In this document: one piece after another, positions 1,725 through 52,912 of the stretch
How positions within the stretch are numbered: the stretch's first letter is position 1
Layout: the number at the start of each line of letters is the position of its first letter
NCBI GenBank assembly: GCA_041654215.1
Contig: JBAZDY010000001.1
Span: 1-58,624 of the forward strand
Source of the DNA: Candidatus Omnitrophota bacterium
GTDB lineage: Bacteria > Omnitrophota > Gorgyraeia > Gygaellales > Profunditerraquicolaceae
DNA length: 58,624 nucleotides
Reading direction: 5' to 3'
Position numbers and translations under genes: made by a program
Notes under the pieces: model-generated
Told to the model about the DNA's origin: nothing
Databases searched by the model: none
What the model saw: only the letters and a program-made list of their open reading frames with translations

Positions 1725-1761
1725 AGAGTTGACACCCGCGCGGTTTTATGATATATAAAAT

Positions 1762-2340: not shown

Positions 2341-2366
2341 GCAAACCTAAAGGGGAGGGCGCACAA

Positions 2367-21859: not shown

Positions 21860-21880
21860 CCGCGCAAGTAAAGGAAAAGA

Positions 21881-40506: not shown

Positions 40507-41148
40507 TCAACCTATCATAAGTCCCTCCACCCGCGCGCGCTGTCCGTCCGGCGAAGCAGTCAGACAATTCACCAGGCCGCTGTGCCGCCATTGCAGCATA
40601 CAGTTGCGTGGAAGGAACCAGTAACGTTCGCCTACTTTCAGGTCAACCCGGCGGTCGCGCACTATTCCTTCGTATGCCTGCGCCGAATAATAACCGATAT
40701 CCTTTACCGGGGTTGAGCGAGCGGCAAGAGGTCCGCTGATGCACCAGACGATTACGCCGTTGTCCGGGTCGGATTCCAATACCACTCCGCAATGCGTGAC
40801 CGGACATCCGCAGGACATTCCCATGGGGCGACCTGTCAACAGGTCGCCGGCCCTGACTCCCTGTTTGCCGATCCTGGTTGGGTTATATAATAATATGGTT
40901 TCCCTGGGGCCGGGATCTCCAGGCAGGGTATCCAGAATGAAATCGAACGGCCGGCCGAGCGAATCATTCCAGGAGCCGGTAGACGCGCAAGAGCACCCGC
41001 TTACAGTATGTGTTCCGGAGCTCAGGTACGGACACAGATACGCGGCCGAAGGATCTTCTTTTATGAGCAGCGCGAGCTCTCCGCAGGAACGCCTGCCGCA
41101 CAAACCACAGTCCAACCCGGGCAATTTTTCCATTCTTCTCTCTCCCAT
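40507..41148 (-). CDS. Fe-S cluster-domain protein (RnfB-N-terminus-like 4-Cys motif) with an uncharacterised Cys-rich C-terminal domain
   Basis: LPGLDCGLCGRRSCGELA resembles the putative Fe-S cluster domain of RnfB/corrinoid proteins. Further cysteines occur in MSCGCPVTHCG. Confidence 0.55.
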   Translation of the reverse strand: MGERRMEKLPGLDCGLCGRRSCGELALLIKEDPSAAYLCPYLSSGTHTVSGCSCASTGSWNDSLGRPFDFILDTLPGDPGPRETILLYNPTRIGKQGVRAGDLLTGRPMGMSCGCPVTHCGVVLESDPDNGVIVWCISGPLAARSTPVKDIGYYSAQAYEGIVRDRRVDLKVGERYWFLPRNCMLQWRHSGLVNCLTASPDGQRARVEGLMIG

Positions 41149-41149
41149 T

Positions 41150-41869
41150 TCATTCGCCCCGGTAGAATATGCCGTTATCCAAAGGCCGCACTACTCCGAA
41201 ATGTTTTTGCCAGCCGGTTTCTTTCCTGCCTACGCATACGGTGCAAGTGCCCACCGGAGGGCTGCCCCGCATTTTGAAATCGAGGCCTTGTATATCCGGT
41301 GCAGCCGTTATCTTCGCCGCTACGGCGTCGATGCCTATTCCGTATAACGCGTTCGACTCGAAAACCGGGATGCCGGGAGCAGCCTTCATCACCCCCGCCC
41401 GGAAAACCTCCCTCTCCGCCTGGGATATCAGATCTATCTTGGTAACTACTGCGGCATCGGCCAGGGTCAACATCGGCCCTATCTTTATCGGCAGGTTCAT
41501 CCCGGCGGTAGCTTCCAACACCGCTATTCCCAACGCCCCCTCTACATAAGGAGAACAACGAAGGCAAAGCCCGGCCGTCTCAACCATCAGCACCGACGCG
41601 CCGCACTTCTGCGCCCATGCCGCGGCATCGCTGAAAACCATTACGTTGCAGTGGTCCGGGCATAACTCGCCGGAAAATACTTTTTTTGCCGGTATCCCGA
41701 ATTCCGACGCGAAAATAGAGTCCTCGGATGCATACTGCACGTCTATCTTAAGGTAAGCGAGCTTCATTCCGGCTTTTATAAGCCTGCGCGCCGCCTGACG
41801 GAGGACTGTAGTTTTTCCGGCGGTCGAAGGCCCGGCGCAGATCACCGCTTTCATGACCGCCCTCCGCAC
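41150..41869 (-). CDS. G3E-family (HypB/UreG/CobW/MeaB-like) P-loop GTPase
   Basis: Walker A GPSTAGKTT. VETAGLCLRCSP parallels the ENVGNLVCP motif of HypB. VVTKIDL is the NKxD-type box. Confidence 0.6.
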   Translation of the reverse strand: MRRAVMKAVICAGPSTAGKTTVLRQAARRLIKAGMKLAYLKIDVQYASEDSIFASEFGIPAKKVFSGELCPDHCNVMVFSDAAAWAQKCGASVLMVETAGLCLRCSPYVEGALGIAVLEATAGMNLPIKIGPMLTLADAAVVTKIDLISQAEREVFRAGVMKAAPGIPVFESNALYGIGIDAVAAKITAAPDIQGLDFKMRGSPPVGTCTVCVGRKETGWQKHFGVVRPLDNGIFYRGE

Positions 41870-42672
41870 CGGCGCGCGCCGGGGAAACAGTCCATGACTC
41901 CCGCCTCCACTTTTTCTCCGTCCCTAATAAGCTTCCGTAGATACAGGACAGACTCATCCAGGCGCCTGATCTCTTCGGCCACGGCGCGCTCCGCCCCGTC
42001 CGAACACACCAGTTTAACCATCGCGCCGTTTTTCATTACGATACGAAAATCAGACATCAGGGCGATCCCGGGGTCGTGAGTGACGAAAACGAATATTTTT
42101 TTGTAATTCTTCAGCAATTCCAGGGCACGGCTGCGGTCGATACCGGCATTCTCTATCTCGTCCAGCAGGATTATGGGTGAATTTCCGATCACCACCGCAT
42201 CGGCGATCAGAAGCGCCCTGGTCTGCCCTCCCGAGAGTTCGGTCATGCCGCTGTGAGGATCCAGTGGTTCTCCGGTGAGCTGGTTAGCGAAATTCACCGT
42301 TTCCTCCACCGCGGAAGGAACGTCCGCGTTAGACCTCACAGAAGCGTGTATCTTAAGGAATTCAGCTACCGGCAAATCGGAAAGAAAATTGGTATGCTGG
42401 GTTATAAAAGCCACCGGGTTACGAGCGGGATCTCCTGCCGCCTCGGGCGGGAGGCGTTTGCCGTTGATAAAGACCTTGCGCCTGCTCGGCGTGTTTTCGA
42501 AAGCGAAAAGGGCGATGTCGTCTATGAGGGTAGTCTTACCCGAACCGGTAGGGCCGACGATGCTGACGACATCTCCCATTTTCATCTCCACTTCGAAGAC
42601 GCCGTCCGCCTGTCCGGACTTTCCTATTCCCCCGGTTATCCTTAAATGTTCGATCTCCATTTCACGTCCCAT
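41851..42672 (-). CDS. ABC-type ATPase without a cognate membrane domain
   Basis: Walker A GPTGSGKTT, signature LSGGQTRAL, Walker B ILLDEIENAG, H-loop VTHD. No permease gene is adjacent. Confidence 0.8.
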   Translation of the reverse strand: MGREMEIEHLRITGGIGKSGQADGVFEVEMKMGDVVSIVGPTGSGKTTLIDDIALFAFENTPSRRKVFINGKRLPPEAAGDPARNPVAFITQHTNFLSDLPVAEFLKIHASVRSNADVPSAVEETVNFANQLTGEPLDPHSGMTELSGGQTRALLIADAVVIGNSPIILLDEIENAGIDRSRALELLKNYKKIFVFVTHDPGIALMSDFRIVMKNGAMVKLVCSDGAERAVAEEIRRLDESVLYLRKLIRDGEKVEAGVMDCFPGARRCGGRS

Positions 42673-42722
42673 CTTTCGCTTGCGCCGCCGGCATATAAAC
42701 CGCAGTCAAGTTCAGTCAACGG

Positions 42723-43904
42723 TCAATAATGAAAAAACTCCCCGTTCACCAGTTTATCCAGAAAATTCCCGTGTCTGTCACGCAGGGAATCCAGGTATTC
42801 CTTATCGTAGCTCAACGCCTCTCCGGCAACCCGCGCGCAATAACCGCAATCGGAGCAGCCTCCATGCGGGCAGCCGGAAGTGACGAATTTCCCGATAAAA
42901 CCGTTCAGTCTGGTGTTGTCTATGCGGATTCTGAAATCCTGCAGTATGCTCCCGAGCTCGGCCAAAGAAAAAAGATTGAGCTCGCGAGGATGAAAAAAAT
43001 ACCTGACTTTCAACGGCAGCGTGCGGGGATCAAGCACGGTCTTGCCGTGAAACATCGGCAGCAGATCCACCAGGTTGCCGTCGTATCTACGGCCTGCGTA
43101 AGCCCGCGCGATGAGCAATAGTTTCTCCGTGGAGCAACGCCTGTCGATCAATTTTAACGTCCCGATACCGGCGGATTCATAAACGGCCAGGTCTTCTGGC
43201 CTGATCCACTGAGAAGAGATAAACCTCACCGGGTCGCTCAGACGGATAAACTTGCAGAAAAGATTACAATAATCCACGGCGAACCCGGGCCTGCGCGTAG
43301 AATCCGCCTGCGAGCTGTGGGCGTCGTAAGCGTTATGATACCTGAAGAGAGGACAATCCAGCAGGCAGCTGGTGTTGGCGATCAGCCTCAATTCGCAGGA
43401 GACTTTCTTCTTCAACAGCCTTATCAGGGCGAAATCGCGATTCGCCAGGTTGTGCGCAAGCGTGATCTGGTCCGCCCCGAGCTCCTGCCAGAAAAGCGCT
43501 TTTTGCAGAGAGGCGACCTCGGCATTGGTAGAAACACAGATATTAAAAGCCGGGTATTTCTTTTTTATCATTTGTAAGAAATACGGCGAGGCCACTGTAA
43601 GGGAATCCACCCCGGCGTCAGTCAGCCAACCCAGCAGTTTTCTCACATCCCTATCCCCGGAACGGCTAAACTCCCGGAAAGAACCGCAGGCGGCGTTCAA
43701 AAGATAATTAAATTTAATCCCGGCCCCGTGCAGCTTGCGGATATGCCCGGCGACCCGGACACGGGAAACGTTCGGGAGAATGAACGCCGATCGGCCGCCT
43801 CCCACGACGTCCACGGCAAGTTTACCGTAACATTCGGCTATCCCCAGCTTCTTATATTCGGGGACCAGCGCGTCGTCCCAGTTAGTGGGCATAACCAGTT
43901 TCAA
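42723..43904 (-). CDS. U32-family (UbiU/UbiV/RlhA-like) Fe-S protein, paralog P1
   Basis: MKLVMPTNWDD; block GVDSLTVASPYFLQMIKKKYP...CELRLIANTSCLLDCPLFRYH; GIGTLKLIDRR; C-terminal GCPHGGCSDCGYC. Confidence 0.7.
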   Translation of the reverse strand: MKLVMPTNWDDALVPEYKKLGIAECYGKLAVDVVGGGRSAFILPNVSRVRVAGHIRKLHGAGIKFNYLLNAACGSFREFSRSGDRDVRKLLGWLTDAGVDSLTVASPYFLQMIKKKYPAFNICVSTNAEVASLQKALFWQELGADQITLAHNLANRDFALIRLLKKKVSCELRLIANTSCLLDCPLFRYHNAYDAHSSQADSTRRPGFAVDYCNLFCKFIRLSDPVRFISSQWIRPEDLAVYESAGIGTLKLIDRRCSTEKLLLIARAYAGRRYDGNLVDLLPMFHGKTVLDPRTLPLKVRYFFHPRELNLFSLAELGSILQDFRIRIDNTRLNGFIGKFVTSGCPHGGCSDCGYCARVAGEALSYDKEYLDSLRDRHGNFLDKLVNGEFFHY

Positions 43905-43955
43905 ACCGCACCTCCGCAGATTAGCATTACTTTATTATAGCCGGCGGCTTCGATA

Positions 43956-45008
43956 TTACCAGAGGGAATCTCCGCAGGAACGCCCTCCCCCGCACGGCAA
44001 CAGCAGTTCCTTCAGAATATCCTCCTGCCTTTTTAAAGCATATTGACGTTCCTTTTCATCGAACTCCACCGCCTCGCGCGCTTTTTCGGCGCAGAACCGG
44101 CATCCTCCGCAGGCCGCGCCGTTGCAGCCGGCTTCGTAAAGCCTTTCAATGAAACCGTCAAGCTTGGCGTTGTCCACGCTAAAAACATCTCTTCCCGTCT
44201 CCGTCCTGTCCTCACACAAAAGCAGGTCAAGCAGATTGCCCCGGTAGGCTCCCTGAGAATAAGCGTCTATCAAAATCCTTAATCTTTCCTCCGGAAGCGA
44301 AGAACCGGAAAGCTCCAGAATATCCGCGCCGAGGCGGCTGTAAAAGCCGGCGTCTTCCGGCCTGATCCAGGAAGCCTTCAGCAGCATTACCGGGTCGGAG
44401 AGAAATATCCGCCGGCACCCGGCCAGGTCATAATCAAAAAGAACGGTTTTTGCTTTGCTGCGGTGCGCGCCGAAGAACGGGCGGTGAAAAGAGAACGGAC
44501 AATTCAATAATCCGGGGGCATTGGCGGACAGCCTCAGCTCGCAAGACACGGCGGCGCGTATGGCTTTTATCAAGCCGAAATCGCGGTTCACCCTGACGGA
44601 GGACAAGGTCAGGGAGTCAGCGCCGAGTTCAAGCCATAACCTGGCCCGTGCCGCGCAGTCGATATGGGCGGAATCAGAGACGTTCACTTTAAAAAGCGGG
44701 AACCTTTTTTTTATCAGCTCCAGCAAATACGGAACGCTCACCGTCAGCCTGTCGGCTCCGCACGCGGCAAGCCGGTCCAGCAAATTTTCAATGCCGGACT
44801 GCCAGTTGCGGCCCCATTCGCGGTTATCCAGGCACGCTTCATCCAGGAGATAATTGAAAGAGAACCCTTTGGCGCGCGCCGCCCGTATGTGCCCGGCGTG
44901 CCGGGCCTTCAATCCCGCCTCCGCTTTCCCGCGCACTTCTTCGGCCTTCCGGTGAGAAAGGCTTTCTATAAAAGTATCGTCCCAGTTCGTGGGCACGGAC
45001 AACCTCAT
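43956..45008 (-). CDS. U32-family protein, paralog P2 (shorter; first central Cys replaced)
   Basis: MRLSVPTNWDD; CELRLSANAPGLLNCPFSFH (Gly in place of the first Cys); C-terminal GCNGAACGGCRFC. There is a 4-nt overlap with P3. Confidence 0.7.
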   Translation of the reverse strand: MRLSVPTNWDDTFIESLSHRKAEEVRGKAEAGLKARHAGHIRAARAKGFSFNYLLDEACLDNREWGRNWQSGIENLLDRLAACGADRLTVSVPYLLELIKKRFPLFKVNVSDSAHIDCAARARLWLELGADSLTLSSVRVNRDFGLIKAIRAAVSCELRLSANAPGLLNCPFSFHRPFFGAHRSKAKTVLFDYDLAGCRRIFLSDPVMLLKASWIRPEDAGFYSRLGADILELSGSSLPEERLRILIDAYSQGAYRGNLLDLLLCEDRTETGRDVFSVDNAKLDGFIERLYEAGCNGAACGGCRFCAEKAREAVEFDEKERQYALKRQEDILKELLLPCGGGRSCGDSLW

Positions 45009-46195
45009 CTTATTCTCCCCGTCCGGAAGAGAGCGCCGCCGGCAATCTCTTCAAGGAAAGCTTCGAAACGTCCGGACGCCTTTTTCAGGTAATCCGGATC
45101 TATCTTCACCGAGCGTGCGGCTATATCTTTACAATAACCGCACTCGGCGCAGTCTTTATGCGCGCAGGAAGAATGAAGAAAGAAATCCAGGAATCCGTCA
45201 AGCGAACGGTTGTCTATGAATATCTTTCTGCGCGAAACGATATCCCGGAAAGCGTAGAGCCTGCGCAGGTCCACACTCAAGGGCCGGAAGAAGAAAAAGA
45301 GGTTCCTCACCCAGAAAGAGGCCGCGCGGCGGAGGGTATCGGAAGGTTCCGAGAAGAGATCCGCCAGGTTGCCGTCATAACGTCCTTGGCTGTAAGCCGT
45401 CACTATCCGCTTTATCCTGCTCGTGGGCATAGTGCGGTTAACCAGCTTCAAGGCGTTTATCCCTCTCTCGGCGTAAATCCCCTTGTCCTCGGGGCGGATC
45501 CACCCGGAGCGGATAAAGTGCTCCGGGGATTTGAGTTTGATGAGAAAACAGCGCAGGAAGCAATAATCTATCACGAATCCCCCGCTCCGGTGCCCGTCCT
45601 GTGAGGCATGCGAACTAATTGCGGAATGATACCTGAAAAACGGACAGCCGTGGAGACAGTCCAGATTGGCTATCAAGCACAGTTCGCAGCCGACGGCCGA
45701 ACGTATCCGACGTAAAGCCTCGAAATCGCGGTTGACGTCCGTTGCCGAAAGAGTCAAACCGCTGGCGCCCATCTTTTCCCAGAAAACGGCCTCTTCCCCG
45801 GTTTTTATCCCCGCCTGCGTGGAAACATATATCTTCAAACACGGATAATTAGCCTTTATGAATTCCAGCAAGTACGGTATGGAAACGGTCACGCAGTCGG
45901 CCCCGCAACCGCATATCCAGTCAAGCAATGCGCGCAATCGTTTTCTGCCCGCCGGGGTCAATTCGGCGTTGCCCATACAAGCCGAATTCAGCAGATAGTT
46001 GAAAGACAGCCCTTTGGCGCGGATCGAAGCGATATGCGCGGCGGCTTTCGCGCGGCCGACAGGAGGTAAAATGCAGGAAGGCCTGCCGCCCCCGGTAAAA
46101 TCCCGGTCAAGTTGGCCGTAAAACCCGCTTATCTCCCGTAAAGGAAGCTCCTGCAGAATATCGTCCTGCCAGTTTGTCGGGACTATCAATTTCAT
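45005..46195 (-). CDS. U32-family Fe-S protein, paralog P3
   Basis: MKLIVPTNWQDD; CELCLIANLDCLHGCPFFRYH; ALKLVNR; C-terminal SCAHKDCAECGYC. There is a 4-nt overlap with the upstream radical SAM gene. Confidence 0.7.
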   Translation of the reverse strand: MKLIVPTNWQDDILQELPLREISGFYGQLDRDFTGGGRPSCILPPVGRAKAAAHIASIRAKGLSFNYLLNSACMGNAELTPAGRKRLRALLDWICGCGADCVTVSIPYLLEFIKANYPCLKIYVSTQAGIKTGEEAVFWEKMGASGLTLSATDVNRDFEALRRIRSAVGCELCLIANLDCLHGCPFFRYHSAISSHASQDGHRSGGFVIDYCFLRCFLIKLKSPEHFIRSGWIRPEDKGIYAERGINALKLVNRTMPTSRIKRIVTAYSQGRYDGNLADLFSEPSDTLRRAASFWVRNLFFFFRPLSVDLRRLYAFRDIVSRRKIFIDNRSLDGFLDFFLHSSCAHKDCAECGYCKDIAARSVKIDPDYLKKASGRFEAFLEEIAGGALFRTGRIR

Positions 46196-47658
46196 GATCG
46201 TTTTAGAAATATTTTTTTTGTCTTTTTCAAACTGCCGAAGAGAAAAATAAACAACAGCCAGGCCCCGCCGAAGATAAGATTACGCAAGGTTATTGTTCCC
46301 CGGGAGAGGTTTTTTATTATGACTCCCGGACGGGCGTAGTATTCCATCATACCCTTGCGCTGGAAATAACGCAAGGCGTCGCCGCTCATGCCTTGCGGGG
46401 CATAGACCAGCCCCCCTCCCAGGTGTGTCCAGTCAGCCCAACTGGTGAACTTCTCCGGGGATTCTTTTATCAGGTTTTTCCCGTGTTCCTCGAAGAAACG
46501 GGACCCCGGGTAAGGCACGGCAAGATTGAACTTTACTATGTCGCAATTCAACTCTCTGGCGAAATCTATCGTCTGCCTGCATGTAGCCGGCGTTTCCCCG
46601 GGCAGGCCGAGAATAAACAACCCCTGCGAAAAGATACCCGCTTTCGCGGTCTCCCTCACCGCGAACCGGGCCTGTTCCAGGGTGGTGTGCTTGTTCAACC
46701 GCTCGAGCACCTCCCGGCTGCCGACCTCTATCCCATACATGATAAGATGCGCCCCGGCTTCCTTCATCGCGCGCAGCAGGCGCGGAGTCACTTTATCTAC
46801 CCTTGTCTCCGTGCACCAACGGACCTTTTTATGCAGACCGCGCCCGATGATTATCCGGCAGAAACGCAGGCCGCTATCTTCGTCCCAGGGGAAATAAGCG
46901 TCGCTAAAACCGAAATATCCGACCCGCAAGGTATCGGCAAAATACTCCATTTCGTCGGCCACTTTCTCAAGGTCACGGAAACGCATGCGCGGATATACCT
47001 TATCCTGGGAACAATAATAACAGCGGTATTTGCATCCCCGGGAAGCGATAATCGGGAACGCGCGGGACCTGTTGATCGCTACCAGAGGCGCCTCCTTATA
47101 AAGGTCGGCGTCGAATAAATGCCAGGCCGGCAACGGAAGGGAATCGAGGTCGTCGCGCAGAGGCCTGTCCGGGTTTTCGACAACCGCGCTGTCTTCGCTA
47201 TAGCTTATGCCCGGCGCTTCTCTCCAGGATTTGCCGGAACGGATGTTACGGCAGACCTCCAGCAGGGTATCCTCCCCTTCTCCCCTCACTACGATATCAG
47301 CCATGCCGTCTCCCAGCATGTCCGCCGGAAAACACGTGGCGTGGATATGGCCCAGAATTATCGTAACGTCCGTGTTTTCTGCGCGGATACGGGATATCAT
47401 CCTTTTAATGTCCGGGACAACGGTAGTTAGAGCCGCAATACCTATCACCCCCGGTCTGAATGAAGATATCTTCCGCAAAAGAGCGTCATCCCCGGTTTTC
47501 AGGGCAAACTGGTCATAGACGGCGACCTCAAAACCGTCTTTTTCCAGCACAGCCGAGAGATAGGCCAGCCCCAAAGGGGCTATCGGAGCGCAAAACTTGC
47601 GATAAGCCCAGCTTTTAGATACCACGCTGGAATCGGGATTGATCAGTAATACTCTCAT
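46192..47658 (-). CDS. B12-binding-domain radical SAM enzyme (class B), with a hydrophobic C-terminal helix
   Basis: N-terminal Rossmann-like B12 domain (VLLINPD...GIAALTT...IILGHIHAT). Cluster motif ASRGCKYRCYYC. The tail is LIFGGAWLLFIFLFGSL. Confidence 0.8.
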   Translation of the reverse strand: MRVLLINPDSSVVSKSWAYRKFCAPIAPLGLAYLSAVLEKDGFEVAVYDQFALKTGDDALLRKISSFRPGVIGIAALTTVVPDIKRMISRIRAENTDVTIILGHIHATCFPADMLGDGMADIVVRGEGEDTLLEVCRNIRSGKSWREAPGISYSEDSAVVENPDRPLRDDLDSLPLPAWHLFDADLYKEAPLVAINRSRAFPIIASRGCKYRCYYCSQDKVYPRMRFRDLEKVADEMEYFADTLRVGYFGFSDAYFPWDEDSGLRFCRIIIGRGLHKKVRWCTETRVDKVTPRLLRAMKEAGAHLIMYGIEVGSREVLERLNKHTTLEQARFAVRETAKAGIFSQGLFILGLPGETPATCRQTIDFARELNCDIVKFNLAVPYPGSRFFEEHGKNLIKESPEKFTSWADWTHLGGGLVYAPQGMSGDALRYFQRKGMMEYYARPGVIIKNLSRGTITLRNLIFGGAWLLFIFLFGSLKKTKKIFLKRS

Positions 47659-47677
47659 ACCTTCCCCGCGTACAGTT

Positions 47678-49345
47678 TTATTTCCGCAGTTCGTAATAAT
47701 AAATCTCCACTCCTTCGAACGCTCGATTTTCCTTTACGAGCCTCTGCCGGGAAAGAAACTCCTCCATCCCGGCCGGAGGCCGGATTATCTTTCTGTTCCA
47801 GCCGCTGCAAACGAGCCACAACCCGCCTTCTTTCCCGCTGAACTGCCGCTCAGTGGCGGTTTTGACCCACGGCATCTTCAGCATGCCGGAAAGAGTGTTC
47901 TTTTCATATTTATCTTCGACGGGAGAATCTATCAGGAAAAGCCCGGGCAACATCCGGCGCGGCAGGTAACACGCCATGGGATACAACGTACTGTAGTGAG
48001 ACAAAAGCACGGCCTCCCCGGGCTTATATGCCCGCTTTATGTAGTCGCATACTTCGCGCAGAGGCTTGTTCATTACAACTCCGCCCGAAGGCTCGAAATG
48101 TTCATTCCGGTAATAATTCCGCAGCGCCGAAAGCGCAACGGCGAGGAATACCACGAACAAACAGATCGCCGCGGCGGGCCTGCGGCGGCAAAGCAGGCGT
48201 AAACCGCAGGCAAACAGAAGATAAAAGTAACCGCTTGCGAAAATAAGCGGCCTGTCGAACAATAGCGGGCAAAATAACGGCGATAACGCCAAAGCCGCCA
48301 GGAGCGGAACAACCATACAAACAAGTATAAAGATCGCGGAATCACTCCGGCCCCAGGAAGATGTCCCGTCTCTTCTGACTGCACAGCGCACCAAATAAAC
48401 GGTTGGCGCCAGGCAGACCGCGAAGGCCGCCAGGGTGCCGGCAGTAGAGCCGGGAAAAGCGGTGTGATAGCCGAAAAAGAAATTCTTGAATATCCCCGCC
48501 AACTGCCCCGGCGTAAGCGGAGGAACCCAGAAGTGCCCTTTAACCCGCAGAATATGATGCAGCATCTTGCCGCTCCAGGGCAAAAAAAGCAAAGCGGTAA
48601 ACAAAGACGACGCAATCCAGTATTTTACCGTTCTGCGGCCGGGGCGGCAAATAGAATACAAAAGCACAAATACGGCTTGGCCACCAAGCAGAAGAAACGC
48701 TGAATAATGAGTATAAAGAACCAGGGCATTGACCAGTGAATGCCCCGCCCAGAAAAGCTTCTTCCCGTTCTGTAATGCCGTTATCAACAATAAGCCCGAT
48801 GTCAGGGAAAGGCATTCGAACAAGGCGTACATCTTTATTTCCTGCGCGTAGTATACCTGAAAAGCGGAAATACCCATTAGCGCCGCCGAAAACAGCGCGA
48901 TACCCGTTCCAAACAGGGATTTCCCTATCGCGTAGATTAAAACAACGGCCAACAGGCTGAACAGCACAGAAGGCAGGCGCAATGCCCGTTCATTGAAAGC
49001 CGGAGAGGTATCCTCTCCGGCTTTCTGCAGAGAGGGAATTCCCGCCGCCGGCGGCGCGGACATTTGCGTTAAATAACGCCATAAAATCCGAAAAAGAGGC
49101 GGATGGATATCTCCACTGCCGGTGTGCGCGTTCTCCGGAGCGGGGTTGTAAACCTCAAGAACTATTATGGACTCATCAAACCATAATGACCTTTGCCCTA
49201 AACCATGGAGACGCGCAGCTCCAGAGGCAAAAACAATCAAAAGCGCCAGCAGTATATGCGCGCGGACGCGCAAACAGGCTCTCCCGCCGACGGACGCATA
49301 CCCGCCACCTGAACCGGAAGAATCGCCTGGAATATTATTTTTCAT
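47678..49345 (-). CDS. GT-C fold membrane glycosyltransferase (ArnT / PMT_2, GT39/GT83-like)
   Basis: About 12 predicted TM helices, SLWFDE in the first periplasmic loop, and a soluble C-terminal domain. Confidence 0.75.
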   Translation of the reverse strand: MKNNIPGDSSGSGGGYASVGGRACLRVRAHILLALLIVFASGAARLHGLGQRSLWFDESIIVLEVYNPAPENAHTGSGDIHPPLFRILWRYLTQMSAPPAAGIPSLQKAGEDTSPAFNERALRLPSVLFSLLAVVLIYAIGKSLFGTGIALFSAALMGISAFQVYYAQEIKMYALFECLSLTSGLLLITALQNGKKLFWAGHSLVNALVLYTHYSAFLLLGGQAVFVLLYSICRPGRRTVKYWIASSLFTALLFLPWSGKMLHHILRVKGHFWVPPLTPGQLAGIFKNFFFGYHTAFPGSTAGTLAAFAVCLAPTVYLVRCAVRRDGTSSWGRSDSAIFILVCMVVPLLAALALSPLFCPLLFDRPLIFASGYFYLLFACGLRLLCRRRPAAAICLFVVFLAVALSALRNYYRNEHFEPSGGVVMNKPLREVCDYIKRAYKPGEAVLLSHYSTLYPMACYLPRRMLPGLFLIDSPVEDKYEKNTLSGMLKMPWVKTATERQFSGKEGGLWLVCSGWNRKIIRPPAGMEEFLSRQRLVKENRAFEGVEIYYYELRK

Positions 49346-49408
49346 AAAGGCTACCCAATCCCCCGTCCCCGGGTATGCGGATGACCAGTCTGGTCTTTGC
49401 CGCGAAGT

Positions 49409-50986
49409 TCATTCATCGTACCATCGGGGGCGCCTTAAGCGCATAAAACCGGTCAACTCTTCAACGCTTCTTTTACCGCGCAGGGCATCCCAAAGAGACA
49501 AAAAAAGCATCTTCAGGGTATTCCTGAGAAACCAGCGGTAAAGACCCCTCTTGTGTTTATGCGGTGAAAAAAGCCCGCGTATTAACCAGTGCGGCCTGTA
49601 AAGCACATACCGTTTGTTCAATTCCATATTCAGATCTGAAAGCTCCGCCCTGGACAATCCGGTCTCGGAAGACATCAATGGGGTTGCCCAGTCGTATTTG
49701 CTGAAATCGGTTTCCAGGAGACGGCCCCGCGCTTTGACCTCCTGGTAAAGGAACGTGCCGGGCACCGGGGCTACCGGATGGAAAGCGGGATAATCTATAT
49801 CTATCTCCACCGCGTATTTAACGAGATCAAGCATGGACTTCCTGGTGTCGAACGGCAGGCAGGTAACAAACGTCCCCTGACGAAAAACGTGCGGGTATTT
49901 GTTCTTGAATATCGCAAAAACCTCCTTGATCATATCACGAGTATAGGCGGTTTTCTTGAGGAGGCGCAGATCTTCAGAACAGCACCGCTCCACCCCGATC
50001 AGCGGATGCACCATTCCGGCCCTGACCATTTTTTCAAGTATGCCGAGTTTCTCGTCGCGTAAAGTAAAATCAGCCCGGATAAAAGCCCACCAGTAAAGAT
50101 CTTTATAATTTCTCTTCAGCAGGCCTTCGCAAAACTCGTTTGTCCACTCGGGCTGGACGTTGAAGGTAGGGTCGGCCCAAAGAATATAACGCCGGCCGTA
50201 TTCTTTATAGATGATATCCACCTCCTCCAGCGTGCGCTGAACGCTCTTGGTCCGGTAGCGCGGAGAAACTTCAAGCTCGCCTTTCTCGATATCATTGCGT
50301 TTCTGCGTGCCCCAGAACGTCCATAAGGAACAAAAATTGCAGCGGTCCACGCAGCCACGGGAATGCTCCAGTGTGGCGCTTTGCGGCCAGATGTAGCCGA
50401 AACGGGAATATTTGCCCATCGGCATAAGGTCATAAGCCGGCAACGGCAGGCTGTCCAGATCGGAAACCATCTCTCGCAGGGCCGTGCGCACGGCCCTGCC
50501 GTTCTTGAGGTAGGCGATCCCTTGAACCCCGGAAAGATCCCCCCCTCTGCGCAGAGCGGCAATAAGCTCCACGATCGTCTCTTCCCCTTCGAAACGCACA
50601 ATAAAATCCAGAGGGAACGACTTAAGGCTCTGCTCATACATCCAGGAAAAGAAATGCCCGCCGGCTACGGTAACTATGCGCGGATATATATCCTTGGCGA
50701 GAGAAAAAAGACGGGCGGCCTCATGGTGATAAAGGGCCTCCTCCCCTGCTCCTATAATATCCGGCTTTTCGAGCTCGATTATCTCACGTAGGCTCTTCCA
50801 GCCTATCTTTAAGGGAGGACAGTCGATTATCTTGACTGTTATCTCCGGAAAGGCCCTGCGTACCGAGGCGGCTATACAGGGGAGTCCGAGCGGCAGAAGA
50901 GAATTATCCGATTCGTTTATAAACGGCCATAAATAACGGGGCGGCCGCACCAACAGGAGTTTTCTGATATCCGTGGAATTAGACAT
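49409..50986 (-). CDS. B12-binding-domain radical SAM enzyme (class B), second copy
   Basis: LLLVRPP...LGLPCIAA...IIGAGEEAL...VAGGHFFS B12-type domain. Cluster motif HSRGCVDRCNFCSLW. Confidence 0.8.
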   Translation of the reverse strand: MSNSTDIRKLLLVRPPRYLWPFINESDNSLLPLGLPCIAASVRRAFPEITVKIIDCPPLKIGWKSLREIIELEKPDIIGAGEEALYHHEAARLFSLAKDIYPRIVTVAGGHFFSWMYEQSLKSFPLDFIVRFEGEETIVELIAALRRGGDLSGVQGIAYLKNGRAVRTALREMVSDLDSLPLPAYDLMPMGKYSRFGYIWPQSATLEHSRGCVDRCNFCSLWTFWGTQKRNDIEKGELEVSPRYRTKSVQRTLEEVDIIYKEYGRRYILWADPTFNVQPEWTNEFCEGLLKRNYKDLYWWAFIRADFTLRDEKLGILEKMVRAGMVHPLIGVERCCSEDLRLLKKTAYTRDMIKEVFAIFKNKYPHVFRQGTFVTCLPFDTRKSMLDLVKYAVEIDIDYPAFHPVAPVPGTFLYQEVKARGRLLETDFSKYDWATPLMSSETGLSRAELSDLNMELNKRYVLYRPHWLIRGLFSPHKHKRGLYRWFLRNTLKMLFLSLWDALRGKRSVEELTGFMRLRRPRWYDE

Positions 50987-51185
50987 AAACGAGTGAACAA
51001 TCTCTCCTTTCTGCCCGGCATTCGTTTCAATTCGTAAAACCGGGATTTACAAATGAAACGCCGCGGGCTGATTCTTCGGCAAGCCTTGGCAGTGAGCCTG
51101 TCTAATTACTTAAGCCAGGCGTCCGCTATTTGCCGAAGCGCAATACTGCTATCCTTCCAAGATTTCCGAAAAGAGCGGCCAAACC

Positions 51186-51359
51186 CTATCCGCGAATGTA
51201 TAAACTCCAAGCGCCGTGCTCATCTCTCTGCGGATAGAAAACTTCATTCGCGCTTTTGAGCGGGAAGAAATATGTTCCATAGTGCGCCTTTCGGGCAAAC
51301 CGCGATTTTTTATTGCCGTATCGAGGGATCGGTATAGGACAACACCGGCGCGGGGACAT
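51186..51359 (-). CDS. Candidate unannotated 57-aa ORF in the gap between P4 and the second radical SAM gene
   Basis: My own translation: MSPRRCCPIPIPRYGNKKSRFARKAHYGTYFFPLKSANEVFYPQRDEHGAWSLYIRG. SD GGAGG lies 9 nt upstream of the ATG. A TGcTATAAT box lies about 27 nt upstream. I recognise no family. Confidence 0.25.
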   Translation of the reverse strand: MSPRRCCPIPIPRYGNKKSRFARKAHYGTYFFPLKSANEVFYPQRDEHGAWSLYIRG

Positions 51360-51385
51360 ACCGCATGGCCTCCGACGATTTTATG

Positions 51386-51394
51386 ATTATAGCA
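51386..51394 (-). promoter_or_regulatory. Extended -10-like box (TGCTATAAT)
   Basis: The minus strand reads tgctataat. A weak -35 (tttcta) lies 17 nt upstream. Confidence 0.25.
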
Positions 51395-51464
51395 TCTGAG
51401 GCGAGATTTAGAAAGCTGGATTTGAAGAAATGCCTTCGGTTGTTTCACGGACAAACCGCAGCGT

Positions 51465-52670
51465 TTATTTTCTTCCGCTCCGGCTTTTATCCTTGATAAA
51501 AAAGATGCCTCCTCCGGCAAGATCGTCGAGAGCTCTGCGATAAGTCCTGAGCGCGGCCTCTTTGATGCCGGCAGAGACGGTCAAAGCTTTGGAAGTCGCG
51601 TCGCGGCAGTAACCGCAGGAAGAACAATCATATCCGCGGCACTTCCCCTGACGAAAAAATTCCAGGAAGCCGTCCAGTTTACGGTTATCCAGGTATATCC
51701 CTCCGGCAGAAAGCGCGCGGCCGAGAGCGGCAAGGCGCAGAATGTCGTATTGAAAAGGTCGGAAGAAATAAAAAAACTTCTTTAAAATCTGAGGAGCGAA
51801 ATTAACCACGTATTTATCCGTGTTAAAGGGAAAGAGATCCAGGAGATTACCCTCGTACCTGCCGGCTGTATAAGCCGAAACTATGCGCGCCAACTCCGCG
51901 GACTTCATTCCCCTGTCCACAAGCTTTATGCGGTCAACGCCGGCTTCTTCATAGAAACGCACATCCTCGGGACGGATCCATACCGCCGATAACATCCTTT
52001 CCGGCTCAGACAAACGCATGAACCTACAGAGAAGAGAACAATAGTCGATATGGAAACTTCCCGTTTCGCGCCTGCGCGAGGCGTGGCTGGAGATATTCCC
52101 GTGGTACCGTTGAAGATGACAATTAGGCAGGCACGGCAGATTGGCTATCAATTGCAGGTGGCAGTGTACGCGTCTGCGTATAGCGCCCAGCAGGCGAAAA
52201 TCACGGTTGACATCCACGCAGGAGAGGGTGATCTGTTCGGCCCCCATATCTTCCCAGTAGGCGGCGCGCGCCGGTGTATCCACTGCGGCACCCACCGAAA
52301 CCGAGATCTTGAAATGAGGGAATGATTTCTTCACCAGAGCCAGCAGATAAGGCGTGGAAACGGTCACCCCATCCGCTCCTGCGAGAGAAATAACATCAAG
52401 AAGACGGCGTATCCTCACCTGCCCCCCCCTCGTCCATTCCATATTGCCTGTGCAAACCGGGTTCAAAAGATAATTAAAAGCCAATCCCAGGGAATGAGCG
52501 CGCCCGACCTCGCGACAAAGCGCTTTCCTGCCGGCTGAAGGAAGCAGGCAGGAAGCATGCGCGCCGCCCAGGCAATCGGGTTCCATTTTGCCGTAAACTT
52601 CGGCTACCGACGAAATATCTATCGTATCCAGCAGATCCGTCTGCCAGTTAATCGGCACGGAAAACTTCAT
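51465..52670 (-). CDS. U32-family Fe-S protein, paralog P4
   Basis: MKFSVPINWQTD; CHLQLIANLPCLPNCHLQRYH; RIKLVDR; C-terminal KCRGYDCSSCGYC. Confidence 0.7.
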   Translation of the reverse strand: MKFSVPINWQTDLLDTIDISSVAEVYGKMEPDCLGGAHASCLLPSAGRKALCREVGRAHSLGLAFNYLLNPVCTGNMEWTRGGQVRIRRLLDVISLAGADGVTVSTPYLLALVKKSFPHFKISVSVGAAVDTPARAAYWEDMGAEQITLSCVDVNRDFRLLGAIRRRVHCHLQLIANLPCLPNCHLQRYHGNISSHASRRRETGSFHIDYCSLLCRFMRLSEPERMLSAVWIRPEDVRFYEEAGVDRIKLVDRGMKSAELARIVSAYTAGRYEGNLLDLFPFNTDKYVVNFAPQILKKFFYFFRPFQYDILRLAALGRALSAGGIYLDNRKLDGFLEFFRQGKCRGYDCSSCGYCRDATSKALTVSAGIKEAALRTYRRALDDLAGGGIFFIKDKSRSGRK

Positions 52671-52851: not shown

Positions 52852-52912
52852 TTTGGGTATTATATCACATCCGCGGGAAAATTTCTAAGAAAGAGGGGCG
52901 AAAACGGGAATC

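Follow-up and report, generated by a model that had tools for sequence, protein, structure and literature searches.

The question raised by this locus is whether ten consecutive genes on one strand of an Omnitrophota genome, encoding four U32-family proteins, two cobalamin-binding radical-SAM (B12-rSAM) enzymes, a GT-C glycosyltransferase and a trio of ABC-type ATPase, G3E GTPase and Fe-S protein, belong to a single pathway, and what such a pathway would make. In the window, i.e. the whole stretch of 58,624 nucleotides that was analysed, the ten tightly packed minus-strand open reading frames were all found where the initial annotation had placed them (Table 1). The same is true for their overlaps (4 nt at 45005-45008, 4 nt at 46192-46195 between the stop of rSAM2 and the start of U32b, and 19 nt at 41851-41869) and for the gaps between them (1, 19, 50, 51 and 63 nt, and one of 478 nt). 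The family assignments were also borne out, all genes exceeding the Pfam gathering score (22.4 bits for Peptidase_U32, where the four paralogs reached 27-48 bits, and 26.1 bits for PMT_2). The possibility that these genes simply fall into characterised orthologous groups, which had been raised at the same time, found no support. Judged by sequence profiles, no gene of the locus reaches any such group, as all were far below the cut-offs of the NCBIfam equivalogs UbiU, UbiV, TrhP, BchE, HpnJ, HpnR and ArnC. Lastly, lptD and nucleotide-sugar genes had been described as lying just downstream. lptD and the genes for UDP-glucose dehydrogenase and an epimerase are indeed present there, but a ROK kinase and a transaldolase gene intervene, and the proximity is weak evidence, as L004, a collinear close relative, is the only other locus to have it.

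Table 1. Genes and promoter candidates of the locus, with their positions in the window.
Feature	Position	Strand	Length	Family or sequence signature
Sigma-70-like promoter candidate upstream of U32a	52859..52887	-		TAGAAA, 17 nt, TATAAT, TG extension
U32a	51465-52670	-	401 aa	Peptidase_U32 PF01136, 36.4 bits
Extended -10 element inside 478-nt gap	51383..51396	-		TGCTATAAT, conserved with L004
rSAM1	49409-50986	-	525 aa	Pfam B12-binding + Radical_SAM
GT-C	47678-49345	-	555 aa	PMT_2 PF13231, 40 bits
rSAM2	46192-47658	-	488 aa	Pfam B12-binding + Radical_SAM, 79.8 and 74.9 bits
U32b	45005-46195	-	396 aa	PF01136, 38.3 bits
U32c	43956-45008	-	350 aa	PF01136, 27.1 bits
U32d	42723-43904	-	393 aa	PF01136, 47.7 bits
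ABC ATPase	41851-42672	-	273 aa	Pfam ABC_tran
G3E GTPase	41150-41869	-	239 aa	Pfam cobW; HypB/UreG-like
FeS protein	40507-41148	-	213 aa	Pfam FeS PF04060

The locus consists of two units, one of seven genes (42723-52670) and one of three (40507-42672), and is not a single ten-gene pathway; of the ten-gene locus originally proposed, the seven-gene part stands. The trio, composed of an ABC-type ATPase without a permease, a HypB/UreG-like G3E GTPase and a PF04060 Fe-S protein, is an independent and widely conserved operon of anaerobes outside the U32/rSAM module. L085, L086, L087, L091 and L092 have the identical three-gene order and lack U32 and rSAM genes in its vicinity; in L087 and L091 the trio is preceded by an Rrf2 regulator. 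In Bacteroidota, Methanocella and other anaerobes the trio stands alone, with Rrf2, cysteine desulfurase, cysteine synthase or ThiF/ThiS genes as neighbours; B12-rSAM genes were never seen beside these stand-alone operons. Homologs of the Fe-S protein are 50-60% identical across bacteria and Methanocella, and the role of the trio is probably in Fe-S or sulfur homeostasis. It could be argued that all ten genes nevertheless form one operon, in which the trio supplies the radical-SAM and U32 proteins with cobalamin or metal clusters. G3E GTPases include cofactor chaperones, the strand is common to all genes, and U32d is separated from the ABC gene by just 50 nt, the two being called as overlapping in L004. 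However, L004, which is fully collinear with the window, is the only other U32 locus that contains the trio, and next to U32d in the 93%-identical L006 the trio is missing. Given also its solitary occurrence elsewhere, a single operon of ten genes is disfavoured and in our opinion very unlikely, and the dedicated cofactor delivery that the initial annotation had ascribed to the G3E GTPase has to be abandoned.

The seven remaining genes are syntenic in related genomes, and represent a conserved, undescribed module of uncultured Omnitrophota. The combination of U32, cobalamin radical-SAM and GT-C genes recurs in many Omnitrophota and Elusimicrobiota genomes, within variable surface-glycan loci, and in dozens of unrelated contigs. 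Tandem U32 genes accompanied by B12-rSAM genes are present in L001, L002/L003, L005 and L089, of which only L005 lacks a PMT_2 GT-C; L088 carries rSAM1 and three U32 genes, and neither a GT-C nor a further B12-rSAM gene. Among the 71 loci with a called U32 gene, B12-rSAM genes occur in 40 (directly adjacent to U32 in 28), GT-C in 18 and more than one U32 gene in 21, in a sample drawn by similarity to the U32 gene, so that these association counts are not phylogenetically independent. The adjacency might still be incidental, the genome being gene-dense and co-directional, and the peptidase annotation first given to the U32 proteins might be correct. Almost all genes of the window are indeed co-directional, and U32 and rSAM genes are spaced no more closely than the background of these loci, the median gap being 17 nt in either case. 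This view is hard to reconcile, however, with the finding that the association spans contigs at 40-60% identity that share no flanking genes, and with the strong enrichment of B12-rSAM genes around these U32 genes (128 in 1.27 Mb of loci versus 2 in the 58.6-kb window, both within the locus). We therefore attach hardly any likelihood to an incidental arrangement.

The seven-gene unit is shuffled cassette-wise, even between genomes that are 93% identical. At 93-94% nucleotide identity, L006 (Ca. Undivivens) shares with the window only U32d and the stretch 45956-47030, which includes rSAM2 sequence and the initial ~240 nt of U32b. The remainder of U32b and the whole of U32c have been exchanged for ~8.9 kb that encode a DegT protein and other rSAM enzymes. 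The module forms a single cassette in a surface-structure locus that changes rapidly. As to its transcription, no other site in the region surpasses the promoter candidate that precedes U32a, a consensus match only, with 10 of 12 positions matching. The TGCTATAAT element in the 478-nt gap is a candidate for a possible internal promoter serving rSAM1 and the following genes. Apart from this conserved element, a 142-nt indel distinguishes the gap from that of L004 and speaks against a conserved small ORF; none was found in this comparison, and the gap matched no Rfam family.

As already noticed in the initial annotation, the four U32 proteins are true paralogs (39-45% mutual identity). They group as one distinct U32 subfamily in sequence comparisons, and each has a separate orthologous lineage, that of U32a being found in L001, L004 and L016. 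U32a has the conserved barrel cysteines and a C-terminal C-x4-C-x2-C-x2-C motif, and is a putative prephenate-dependent Fe-S hydroxylase. Of 106 family members, 104 retain Cys180 and 102 retain Cys184 (U32d numbering), which align with Cys169 and Cys176 of UbiU, respectively; Cys217 and the C-terminal four-cysteine motif are likewise kept in the family. The AlphaFold model of U32d (pLDDT 87.5, pTM 0.89) has as its best PDB match the U32 protein Mk0906 (entry 5d88; E 3e-11, TM 0.74), an entry that the U32 family profile matches at 3.5e-19. U32b is the long member of a recurrent pair of long and short U32 proteins, and its adjacency to U32c is kept in L001, L004 and L038. The short U32c is degenerate: in alignments it lacks the GGGR loop and Cys213, and Gly replaces the almost invariant Cys180, which is absent in just one other of the 106 members. 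It shares a divergent clade with the short U32 genes found in L001 and L038, and probably serves U32b as a partner that is either non-catalytic or altered.

Both radical-SAM enzymes are of the cobalamin-binding class B, the sequence of which is not predictive of the reaction. rSAM1 contains the C-x3-C-x2-C motif (GCVDRCNFC) and has BchE as its best NCBIfam match (195 bits; cut-off 481). Its orthologous group is ~70-75% identical across more than 100 sequence clusters, the named sources being almost all Omnitrophota, and it adjoins U32 genes in L002, L012, L013, L027, L088 and L089. The best matches of rSAM2, BchE (190 bits) and HpnJ (161 bits), are far under the cut-offs, and its orthologs, 39-72% identical, adjoin U32 genes in L002, L019, L022, L023, L030 and L038. 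The C-terminal hydrophobic helix reported earlier for one of the two enzymes was located at residues 456-474 of rSAM2, where it is a predicted membrane anchor; such a segment is also present in 13 of 122 related B12-rSAM proteins. GT-C has at least nine predicted hydrophobic segments, with an FDES acidic motif after the first, and its family is present in 19 clustered sources, the window included. This PMT_2/ArnT-like membrane enzyme is expected to act on the outer side of the inner membrane and to take its sugar from a polyprenyl-phosphate donor.

Clues to the function come from relatives in other phyla, where the U32 subfamily occurs in three settings, namely beside chorismate mutase, in squalene-hopene cyclase operons and in type III PKS phenolic-lipid operons. 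Prephenate is the product of chorismate mutase. A fusion of this enzyme with DAHP synthase (CM-DAHPS) directly adjoins U32 in six loci from several phyla, and a standalone chorismate mutase gene lies between U32 genes in L088, an Omnitrophota rSAM1 cluster. The operon in L076 comprises polyprenyl synthase, CM-DAHPS, U32, GGR-like and squalene-hopene cyclase genes, with reduced forms in L057 and L069, and the subfamily is also found in YceI/type III PKS/MMPL/UbiE operons. For UbiU/V, prephenate is the established oxygen donor (PMC10990095). A hydroxylase, and not a protease, is what one would expect from the pattern of Fe-S cysteines and from the neighbouring chorismate-mutase genes. In view of the contexts of these relatives, the seven-gene unit may therefore be read as combining prephenate-dependent hydroxylation, radical alkylation and periplasmic glycosylation.

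The Omnitrophota loci contain genes for WecA-like GT4, GT1 and ArnC-like GT2 proteins, an ABC-2 transporter, DegT, epimerases, a polysaccharide deacetylase, a WbuX-like amidotransferase and an HpnK-like deacetylase, as well as numerous unannotated polytopic membrane proteins. These glycan genes could be mere neighbours in a variable region, and the module in the window has no GT2, GT4 or transporter of its own. Aromatic-scaffold genes (type III PKS, UbiA, chorismate lyase) were absent from the window and the sampled Omnitrophota loci; to our knowledge, all U32 proteins characterised so far act on aromatic or pyrimidine rings. With moderate confidence, we propose that 42723-52670 is an O2-independent hydroxylation, alkylation and glycosylation module for a membrane-anchored envelope molecule of the Omnitrophota cell, the most likely substrates being lipids, and sugars or glycans linked to a lipid or to polyprenyl phosphate. 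This proposal draws on direct data for gene families, fold, paralogy, conserved synteny and the settings in which relatives occur (lipid, glycan and prephenate), from which we infer what the enzymes do, which class of substrate they act on and in what order. Anaerobic hydroxylation and alkylation together with glycosylation of a lipid, isoprenoid or envelope glycan, in general terms as first suggested for this locus, fits the comparative evidence (U32 relatives adjoin chorismate mutase, squalene-hopene cyclase and glycan-assembly genes, or a type III PKS gene together with an MMPL transporter).

A peptide substrate had not been foreseen in the initial annotation. The module could modify a ribosomal peptide or protein, with the B12-rSAM enzymes C-methylating residues, the U32 proteins hydroxylating aromatic side chains without O2 and GT-C acting as a periplasmic O-glycosyltransferase. 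In L088, L013, L009 and L017, the rSAM1 ortholog directly follows a PapB-like SPASM radical-SAM enzyme, the best NCBIfam match of which is the PapB ranthipeptide maturase (235 bits; cut-off 340), followed by SCIFF, QhpD and nif11 maturases. Just upstream of this maturase, L088, L013 and L009 encode a conserved Lys-rich ORF of 27-36 aa ending in KLSRYCRSGRVLW (L017 is truncated at the locus start, so that this position is not covered there). Furthermore, rSAM2 has sub-threshold matches to the RiPP enzymes ApyD (136 bits) and TIGR03975, PMT_2 is the protein O-mannosyltransferase family, and protein glycosylation is also possible for GT-C/PMT enzymes. However, the window holds no such peptide, the locus no SPASM enzyme and the 478-nt gap no conserved small ORF; the peptide cassette accompanies only 4 of ~11 rSAM1 loci, sugar and lipid genes dominate the remaining context, and the conservation of rSAM1 would be unusual for a RiPP tailoring enzyme. 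Peptide modification is a live rival, albeit an unlikely one.

The high conservation of rSAM1 could also suggest a core function, such as making or finishing a small redox cofactor or quinone-like lipid without O2, as in the UbiU/V/T pathway, with GT-C being an unrelated neighbour. This would agree with the U32 family and its link to prephenate (PMC10990095), with the UbiU-like U32 genes (98-100 bits; UbiU cut-off 440) that have a 265-275-aa partner in five Omnitrophota loci, and with the UbiE-type methyltransferases and YceI that accompany the subfamily in other phyla. Yet neither the window nor the Omnitrophota loci contain a prenyltransferase, decarboxylase or O-methyltransferase gene, GT-C is too recurrent for a bystander, and the variable, cassette-like gene content is unlike that of a cofactor pathway. 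A cofactor or quinone product is therefore quite improbable.

In the proposed tailoring of an envelope molecule, the four U32 proteins would be Fe-S hydroxylases that take an oxygen atom from prephenate, and their extra C-terminal four-cysteine motif may hold a second cluster for electron transfer. rSAM1 and rSAM2, one of them membrane-anchored, would carry out C-methylation or another radical rearrangement of the same substrate, and GT-C would transfer or receive the tailored unit at the periplasmic face, with a polyprenyl-phosphate-linked donor. The U32 proteins of the window are thereby likened to the Fe-S hydroxylases UbiU/UbiV, TrhP and RlhA, and the pairing of UbiU with UbiV is the model for U32b and the degenerate U32c, which probably act as a long and short pair. 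A further parallel is offered by the aerobic hidABC-type operon, where an FAD oxidoreductase takes the position that U32 holds in the type III PKS operons (PMC10896814); judged by this position, the U32 subfamily would replace an O2-dependent flavin hydroxylase in the phenolic-lipid operons.

ORF calling placed ten open reading frames on the minus strand at exactly the positions given in the initial annotation. The overlaps of 4 nt (45005-45008 and 46192-46195) and 19 nt (41851-41869) described there agree with these coordinates, as does the single 478-nt gap, which lies at 50987-51464. Each of the protein families proposed earlier was recovered above its Pfam gathering score, namely Peptidase_U32 in four proteins, B12-binding together with Radical_SAM in two, PMT_2 in a 555-aa membrane protein, and ABC_tran, cobW and the PF04060 Fe-S domain in the three proteins of the trio. 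None of the ten proteins reached any NCBIfam equivalog, which bears out the view that they fall outside the characterised orthologous groups. The hydrophobic helix noticed at the C-terminus of one radical-SAM enzyme corresponds to residues 456-474 of rSAM2. The flanking genes are of the housekeeping type. Downstream they encode an ROK kinase, transaldolase, LptD, UDP-glucose dehydrogenase and an epimerase, so that lptD and nucleotide-sugar genes are indeed found where they had been reported, and upstream they encode two GGDEF proteins, a MalK-type ATPase, AccD and a DUF1015 protein.

The 58.6-kb window contains only two B12-rSAM genes, both in this locus. Queries for type III polyketide synthase (PKS), fused chorismate mutase-DAHP synthase (CM-DAHPS), UbiE, MMPL, SPASM, DUF362 and UbiU-like proteins gave 0 tblastn matches in the window, and an Rfam scan of the window returned tRNA-Gly only, with no cobalamin riboswitch or other RNA family. 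A 252-aa ORF (21152-21910) that overlaps the tRNA-Gly(CCC) gene is probably not real. Chorismate mutase is absent from the window and aroB is present; since the window thus encodes 3-dehydroquinate synthase, it holds at least part of the shikimate route to prephenate. ThiC is also encoded in the window, where in addition a GH57 glycoside hydrolase adjoins a ParA/MinD-type ATPase fused to a glycogen-binding CBM48/AMPK1 module.

Coordinates of the features discussed, in the window and in the loci of relatives (L numbers)
Source	Positions	Feature
Window, minus strand	51465-52670	U32a
Window, minus strand	49409-50986	rSAM1
Window, minus strand	47678-49345	GT-C
Window, minus strand	46192-47658	rSAM2
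Window, minus strand	45005-46195	U32b
Window, minus strand	43956-45008	U32c
Window, minus strand	42723-43904	U32d
Window, minus strand	41851-42672	ABC ATPase (trio)
Window, minus strand	41150-41869	G3E GTPase (trio)
Window, minus strand	40507-41148	PF04060 Fe-S protein (trio)
Window, minus strand	52859-52887	promoter-like site upstream of U32a
Window	51383-51396	range containing the conserved extended -10 element TGCTATAAT, in the gap before rSAM1
Window	153-3467; 12227-13321; 21152-21950; 22013-23296	GH57, ParA/MinD-CBM48, aroB, ThiC, 252-aa ORF/tRNA-Gly
L089	16681-18001	pieces of a B12-rSAM paralog
L076	7739-14255	polyprenyl synthase, CM-DAHPS, U32, GGR-like flavoprotein, squalene-hopene cyclase
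L057	4177-9326	same order as L076, without the flavoprotein gene
L069	720-5474	U32, flavoprotein gene, cyclase
L014	8061-9879	UbiU-like U32 and partner
L015		UbiU-like U32 and partner
L017	18713-20571	UbiU-like U32 and partner
L058	9653-11454	UbiU-like U32 and partner
L088	11548-13467	UbiU-like U32 and partner
L088	8388-8471	ORF ending KLSRYCRSGRVLW; Lys-rich N-terminus, invariant C-terminus
L013	6627-6722	ORF ending KLSRYCRSGRVLW; Lys-rich N-terminus, invariant C-terminus
L009	4430-4540	ORF ending KLSRYCRSGRVLW; Lys-rich N-terminus, invariant C-terminus

The initial annotation regarded the ten genes as one pathway in which the trio would deliver a cofactor to the other enzymes. Our comparison instead separates two units, a seven-gene module (U32a to U32d) and an independent trio. 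The trio adjoins U32 genes only in the window and in L004, a collinear metagenome contig from a near relative. By tblastn it was detected in 0 of 79 further loci, and it is absent from the more distant module relatives L001, L002/L003 and L005. Its Fe-S protein has more than 2000 homologs, which are 50-60% identical in Omnitrophota, Phycisphaerae, Bacteroidota, Bacillota and the archaeon Methanocella, and the free-standing order ABC, cobW, FeS occurs in five independent neighbourhoods (L085, L086, L087, L091 and L092), none of which has U32 or B12-rSAM genes near the trio. Since the trio is missing from the U32 loci of relatives and stands free elsewhere, it is an independent operon and not a dedicated cofactor loader of the module. 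Although all ten genes adjoin each other in the window and in L004, a single ten-gene operon with its own cofactor-loading trio is therefore very unlikely. In two of the five neighbourhoods (L087, L091) the trio lies directly behind an Rrf2 regulator. In L085, an Rrf2 gene is located near the trio, a cysteine-desulfurase-like gene lies inside it, and nearby genes encode a Hexapep protein, which may be a serine acetyltransferase, and a PALP enzyme, which may be a cysteine synthase. In Methanocella conradii (L086) the trio adjoins ThiF/ThiS. The G3E GTPase is HypB-like. We found no family model, solved structure or paper that identifies the trio, and a PDB search by sequence gave no informative match for its Fe-S protein or for the GT-C enzyme of the module. 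Judged from these contexts, the trio is probably tied to Fe-S or sulfur/cysteine homeostasis, and its separation from the module flags another widespread, uncharacterised anaerobe operon.

The conservation of the module was assessed by running a U32-subfamily profile against a set of genomes in which each GTDB species is represented once. This yielded at least 600 stretches, of which 596 were confirmed and the best 80 kept; ORFs in the retained loci were called and clustered, and cluster representatives were annotated. Among these best 80 loci and the window, all counted as sources, the U32 family has 103 members in 72 sources, the B12 radical-SAM family 128 members in 43 sources and the GT-C family 20 members in 19 sources. 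With the window excluded, 71 loci have a called U32 gene. More than one U32 gene is present in 21 of these 71, B12-rSAM genes in 40 (directly adjacent in 28) at a density of one per ~10 kb of U32 locus, and a GT-C gene in 18. The synteny of U32, radical-SAM and GT-C genes thus recurs in relatives as a seven-gene theme, but it does not include the trio. In the relative L001, whose U32d is 64% identical, orthologs of U32d, U32b, U32c and U32a stand in tandem, with additional B12-rSAM genes ahead of them and a PMT_2 and a B12-rSAM gene behind. In L002/L003 (50% identical), three U32 genes are accompanied by rSAM1, an ortholog of rSAM2, a further B12-rSAM gene and a PMT_2 gene, and in the Elusimicrobia contig L005 a pair of U32 genes comes after a pair of B12-rSAM genes. 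A long U32 gene followed by a short one is found in the window, L001, L002, L013 and L028. The two neighbourhoods retrieved via rSAM1 rather than via U32 (L088 and L089) again have U32 genes directly beside rSAM1, and L089 also carries further B12-rSAM genes and a PMT_2 gene. L004 shows 91-94% nucleotide identity and is collinear with the whole window region including the flanks, which makes it uninformative on linkage. We consider it most improbable that the genes adjoin only incidentally, or that the U32 proteins have a peptidase function.

Variability of the module is illustrated by L006, the locus of Ca. Undivivens industriae, which belongs to an Omnitrophota genus and was the best genome match among those listed. 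Its nucleotide identity of 93-94% to the window is limited to 45956-47030, corresponding to rSAM2 and the first ~240 nt of U32b, and to exactly U32d. Where the window has the remainder of U32b and the whole of U32c, L006 instead carries ~8.9 kb with different B12-rSAM genes and a DegT gene, and the identity ends exactly at the end of U32d, beyond which the downstream region differs. This mosaic reflects either a chimeric MAG contig or cassette exchange, a process typically seen in loci for surface structures. In L089, pieces of a B12-rSAM paralog are located between two intact B12-rSAM genes. One, of 94 aa, is B12-binding; the other, of 214 aa, shares 49% identity with the C-terminal part of the window rSAM1 and 63% with an rSAM1-like gene in L010. 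These fragments look like a decayed copy, which would be consistent with rapid turnover of B12-rSAM genes.

The 478-nt gap between U32a and rSAM1 is strongly conserved with L004, except for a 142-nt insertion in the window. It has no Rfam match and no conserved ORF, and a small gene in the gap was rejected as its ORFs are disrupted by the 142-nt indel relative to L004. The two promoter-like signals, one upstream of U32a and one in the gap, are weak indications of transcription start sites read from the DNA. A tighter spacing of U32-rSAM pairs than background was not observed, the median gap being 17 nt in both cases.

The four U32 proteins of the window are paralogs with mutual identities of 39-45%. 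Their PF01136 scores are 36.4, 38.3, 27.1 and 47.7 bits against a cut-off of 22.4, and the match covers only positions 3-86 of the 233 positions of the model. An AlphaFold model of U32d (pLDDT 87.5, pTM 0.89) has its best PDB match in 5d88, the U32 protein Mk0906 (E 3.2e-11, target TM 0.74), which was also found with the family sequence profile (3.5e-19) and is, to our knowledge, the only solved U32 protein. Cys169 and Cys176 of Escherichia coli UbiU align with Cys180 and Cys184 of the window proteins, with a spacing that is unlike that of UbiU/UbiV. Of the candidate ligands of a 4Fe-4S cluster, Cys180, Cys184 and Cys217 are kept in 102-105 of 106 members, and Cys73, Cys170 and Cys213 in 71-93. 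A C-terminal C-x4-C-x2-C-x2-C motif, which is nearly invariant among these members and missing from UbiU/V, may hold a second cluster. U32c is degenerate in that it lacks Cys180, Cys213 and the N-terminal GGGR loop. Orthology to characterised members was not supported: the four proteins gave 24, 16 and 23 bits or no match against the TrhP cut-off of 534, and no match to the NCBIfam model of either UbiU or UbiV. PF01136 was their sole Pfam match, and the DUF3656 domain, which we take to be specific for RlhA, was not seen. In a neighbour-joining tree, U32a, U32b and U32d each form an orthologous lineage of their own within an Omnitrophota/Elusimicrobiota radiation, and U32c groups with other short U32 proteins in a divergent clade. 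At E≤1e-30 the subfamily numbers 873 cluster representatives (50% identity), and those U32d homologs that bear a source name are almost all from Candidatus Omnitrophota. Twelve U32 subfamilies have been recognised, most of them without an assigned function, and U32 proteins are the only enzymes known to use an organic oxygen donor, prephenate, for hydroxylation (PMC10990095, PMC5727448). In UbiU/V-dependent hydroxylation the oxygen atom comes from prephenate, and this has been proposed for all U32 proteins (PMC10990095).

Both rSAM1 and rSAM2 match PF02310 and PF04055 and carry the C-x3-C-x2-C motif (GCVDRCNFC and GCKYRCYYC, respectively), and they are only 25% identical to each other. Their best NCBIfam match is BchE, with 195 and 190 bits against a cut-off of 481. 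They also remain below the cut-offs of HpnJ (95 and 161 bits versus 578) and HpnR (88 and 91 bits versus 650), and below those of PhpK, ApyD, BzaD, the lipid 'ladder' rSAM and the remaining radical-SAM models. The closest solved structures found by sequence search are OxsB (2.9e-9) and CysS. Orthologs of rSAM1 that are 70-75% identical occur in more than 100 sequence clusters, and the source-named ones are almost all from Omnitrophota. In the scanned loci, rSAM1 is 70-73% identical to that of the window, while the accompanying U32 genes are only 42-50% identical. The GT-C protein scores 40 bits for PF13231 (cut-off 26.1) and, as judged from hydropathy only, has at least 9 hydrophobic segments, with an acidic FDES motif ~15 residues past the first. 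It scores 34.5 bits against the cut-off of 900 for mannosyltransferase MT1671 and 18 bits for archaeal STT3, and reaches neither the ArnC nor the ArnT equivalog in NCBIfam.

The neighbourhoods of U32 genes in relatives contain several links to prephenate and to lipid synthesis. A standalone chorismate mutase gene lies between the U32 genes of the rSAM1 cluster in L088, and in six loci from other phyla a fused CM-DAHPS directly adjoins U32, the stop and start codons overlapping in places. In L076, a U32 gene is part of a row of overlapping or abutting genes that includes a squalene-hopene cyclase gene; L057 and L069 have similar rows, the latter starting at U32. Polyprenyl synthase and U32 occur together in L083, a cyclase gene lies near U32 in L046, and squalene synthase genes are found nearby in L076, L057 and L083. 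These cyclase-operon loci belong to Myxococcota-type MAGs and suggest an O2-independent oxygenation step linked to triterpenoid synthesis. In six further loci (L036, L054, L065, L074, L077 and L082), from Geobacter, Desulfuromonadales, Planctomycetota, Acidobacteriota and Bdellovibrionales MAGs, U32 occurs with type III PKS and methyltransferases, joined in several of the six by genes for a YceI-like protein and an MMPL/RND transporter. In the aerobic counterpart operon, a FAD-dependent oxidoreductase holds the corresponding role (PMC10896814). The U32 protein is thus likely to be a non-orthologous replacement of an O2-dependent hydroxylase, in parallel to UbiH/I/F versus UbiU/V. Glycan genes abound in the loci of Omnitrophota and Elusimicrobiota (WecA-like GT4, GT1, ArnC-like GT2, ABC-2 transporter, DegT aminotransferase, epimerases, polysaccharide deacetylase, WbuX-like amidotransferase and an HpnK-like deacetylase with 178 bits versus 233), which also encode many unannotated polytopic membrane proteins.

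A second, UbiU-like kind of U32 protein (98-100 bits versus the UbiU cut-off of 440) recurs in Omnitrophota U32/rSAM loci and is always followed by a 265-275-aa protein without a detectable family. This partner was rejected as a hidden U32 or UbiV protein, with an hhalign probability of 2.6% and no Pfam or NCBIfam match. In another set of loci, from Syntrophaceae/Thermodesulfobacteriota (L047, L055, L056) and Elusimicrobia (L005), the surroundings are of a LuxC/LuxE type. A LuxC acyl-CoA reductase gene directly precedes U32 in L056 and the U32 pair in L055, with genes for an HMGL-like 2-oxoacid-elongation enzyme, an aconitase-like enzyme and a flavoprotein upstream, and in L005 LuxE and the same three families are encoded a few genes before the U32 pair. 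This context hints at a further lipid-like pathway.

The strongest rival explanation is that the module modifies a peptide or protein. The rSAM1 ortholog directly follows a PapB-like SPASM maturase gene in L088, L013, L009 and L017, and just upstream of the maturase gene in the first three loci is a conserved ORF of 27-36 aa that is rich in Lys and has KLSRYCRSGRVLW at its end; L017 is cut where this ORF would lie. The ORF and the SPASM gene look like a RiPP precursor cassette as far as their sequences tell, and proteusin/polytheonamide-type RiPP clusters likewise have several class B radical-SAM genes per cluster. However, none of the six reading frames of the window contains the KLSRYCRSGRVLW peptide, the window locus has no SPASM enzyme and no conserved small ORF in the 478-nt gap, and most rSAM1 loci have neither the SPASM gene nor the KLSRYCRSGRVLW ORF. 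Moreover, unlike RiPP clusters, the window lacks a precursor, maturase, leader-recognition or protease/export gene, and sugar and lipid genes dominate the context. We therefore regard peptide or protein modification as doubtful.

The neighbourhoods of the subfamily, which comprises ~870 sequence clusters, point consistently to membrane-lipid and envelope-glycan tailoring. From the observed families, fold, paralogy, synteny and gene contexts of the module, we infer that it most likely tailors a membrane-anchored envelope molecule without O2, a view including activities, substrate class and step order for which we see an even balance of arguments. The U32 proteins would hydroxylate the envelope molecule with oxygen taken from prephenate, the class B radical-SAM enzymes, one of them membrane-anchored, would methylate or rearrange it, and the GT-C enzyme would perform periplasmic glycosyl transfer from a polyprenyl-phosphate donor. 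The main weakness of envelope tailoring is that all U32 substrates known to us are aromatic or pyrimidine rings, yet no aromatic-scaffold genes accompany the sampled Omnitrophota modules. More tentatively, it is conceivable that in Omnitrophota and allied anaerobes multiple prephenate-dependent U32 proteins with an additional Fe-S motif cooperate with cobalamin radical-SAM enzymes in a pathway not yet described, whose substrate would be an isoprenoid lipid or a lipid-linked glycan and whose product would be a new class of polyhydroxylated or C-methylated envelope glycolipid formed wholly without O2. The same subfamily would then also oxygenate in the hopanoid (squalene-hopene cyclase) and phenolic-lipid operons of other phyla. 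In that case U32 chemistry would reach further than quinones and RNA, possibly even to non-aromatic carbon, with consequences for the use of oxygenated lipid biomarkers as oxygen proxies. Envelope tailoring by the module, if true, would explain how strict anaerobes add oxygen and methyl groups to envelope lipids and glycans, and would offer a first biochemical entry point to the cell surface of the Omnitrophota, which are uncultured and largely host-dependent. Oxygenated triterpenoid or phenolic lipids could then also arise independently of O2, which matters for biomarker geochemistry.

Among known systems, UbiU-UbiV(-UbiT), TrhP and RlhA share their family and TIM-barrel fold with the U32 proteins of the window. 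Two cluster-ligand cysteines of UbiU align with conserved cysteines of these proteins. As with UbiU/UbiV, U32 genes lie next to each other, a long and short pair among them, and the substrate proposed for the module is likewise lipid-associated. In addition, the chorismate mutase link of relatives matches the prephenate dependence of UbiU/V (PMC10990095). A quinone or cofactor pathway is a further rival reading, which we consider unlikely. The window proteins are not orthologs of UbiU/V or TrhP (at most 24 bits versus cut-offs of 275-534), their Pfam match is confined to the first 60-85 model positions, and they differ from UbiU/V in cysteine spacing and in the additional C-terminal cysteine motif. 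There are four paralogs and not two, the window has no ubi genes or UbiT, and the partners are B12 radical-SAM and GT-C enzymes.

The SrsABC/HidABC phenolic-lipid operons consist of type III PKS, methyltransferase and FAD-dependent oxidoreductase genes. In the type III PKS operons of relatives, which often include UbiE-type methyltransferase, MMPL and YceI genes, U32 proteins 36-40% identical to those of the window hold the position of the O2-dependent flavoprotein of the aerobic operon (PMC10896814). However, type III PKS is absent from the window and from all sampled Omnitrophota loci, and no locus of the set analysed has GT-C and PKS together. Because of this absence, the analogy concerns the role of the enzyme and not the pathway of this locus. 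In hopanoid tailoring (HpnI/HpnK/HpnJ; HpnP/HpnR), class B radical-SAM enzymes likewise act on a membrane lipid or an attached sugar. L001, which has all four U32 paralogs, encodes an ArnC-like GT2, an HpnK-like deacetylase and HpnJ-like radical-SAM enzymes, and the U32 subfamily is found inside the squalene-hopene cyclase operons of Myxococcota-type MAGs. On the other hand, the window rSAMs reach only 88-161 bits for HpnJ, HpnR and other equivalogs (cut-offs 578-650). No squalene-hopene cyclase and no HpnH/G/I/J/K or HpnP/R equivalog was found in the window, the Omnitrophota loci have no cyclase, HpnH or HpnG, and the cyclase occurs only in the loci of distant relatives. We know of no described hopanoid pathway that includes a U32 protein.

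With the ArnC/ArnT, GtrB/GtrC and Ppm1/PMT systems the window shares a PMT_2-family GT-C enzyme, and relatives hold an Arn-type parts list in which GT-C occurs with a small ArnC-like GT2, DegT aminotransferase, polysaccharide deacetylase and sugar epimerases. The window module itself lacks GT2, aminotransferase and deacetylase and has no ArnT equivalog match, and those systems have no counterpart of the radical-SAM and U32 enzymes. In the full-text literature, as far as it was covered, no description was found of the module, of U32-cyclase or U32-PKS operons, or of the trio. The module belongs to none of the UbiU/V, Hpn or Arn/Gtr orthologous groups of NCBIfam, but resembles a combination of UbiU/V-type hydroxylation, Hpn-type radical-SAM lipid or sugar tailoring and Arn/Gtr-type GT-C glycosylation. 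What is new here is an uncharacterised U32 subfamily and its pathway context, assembled from known enzyme classes.
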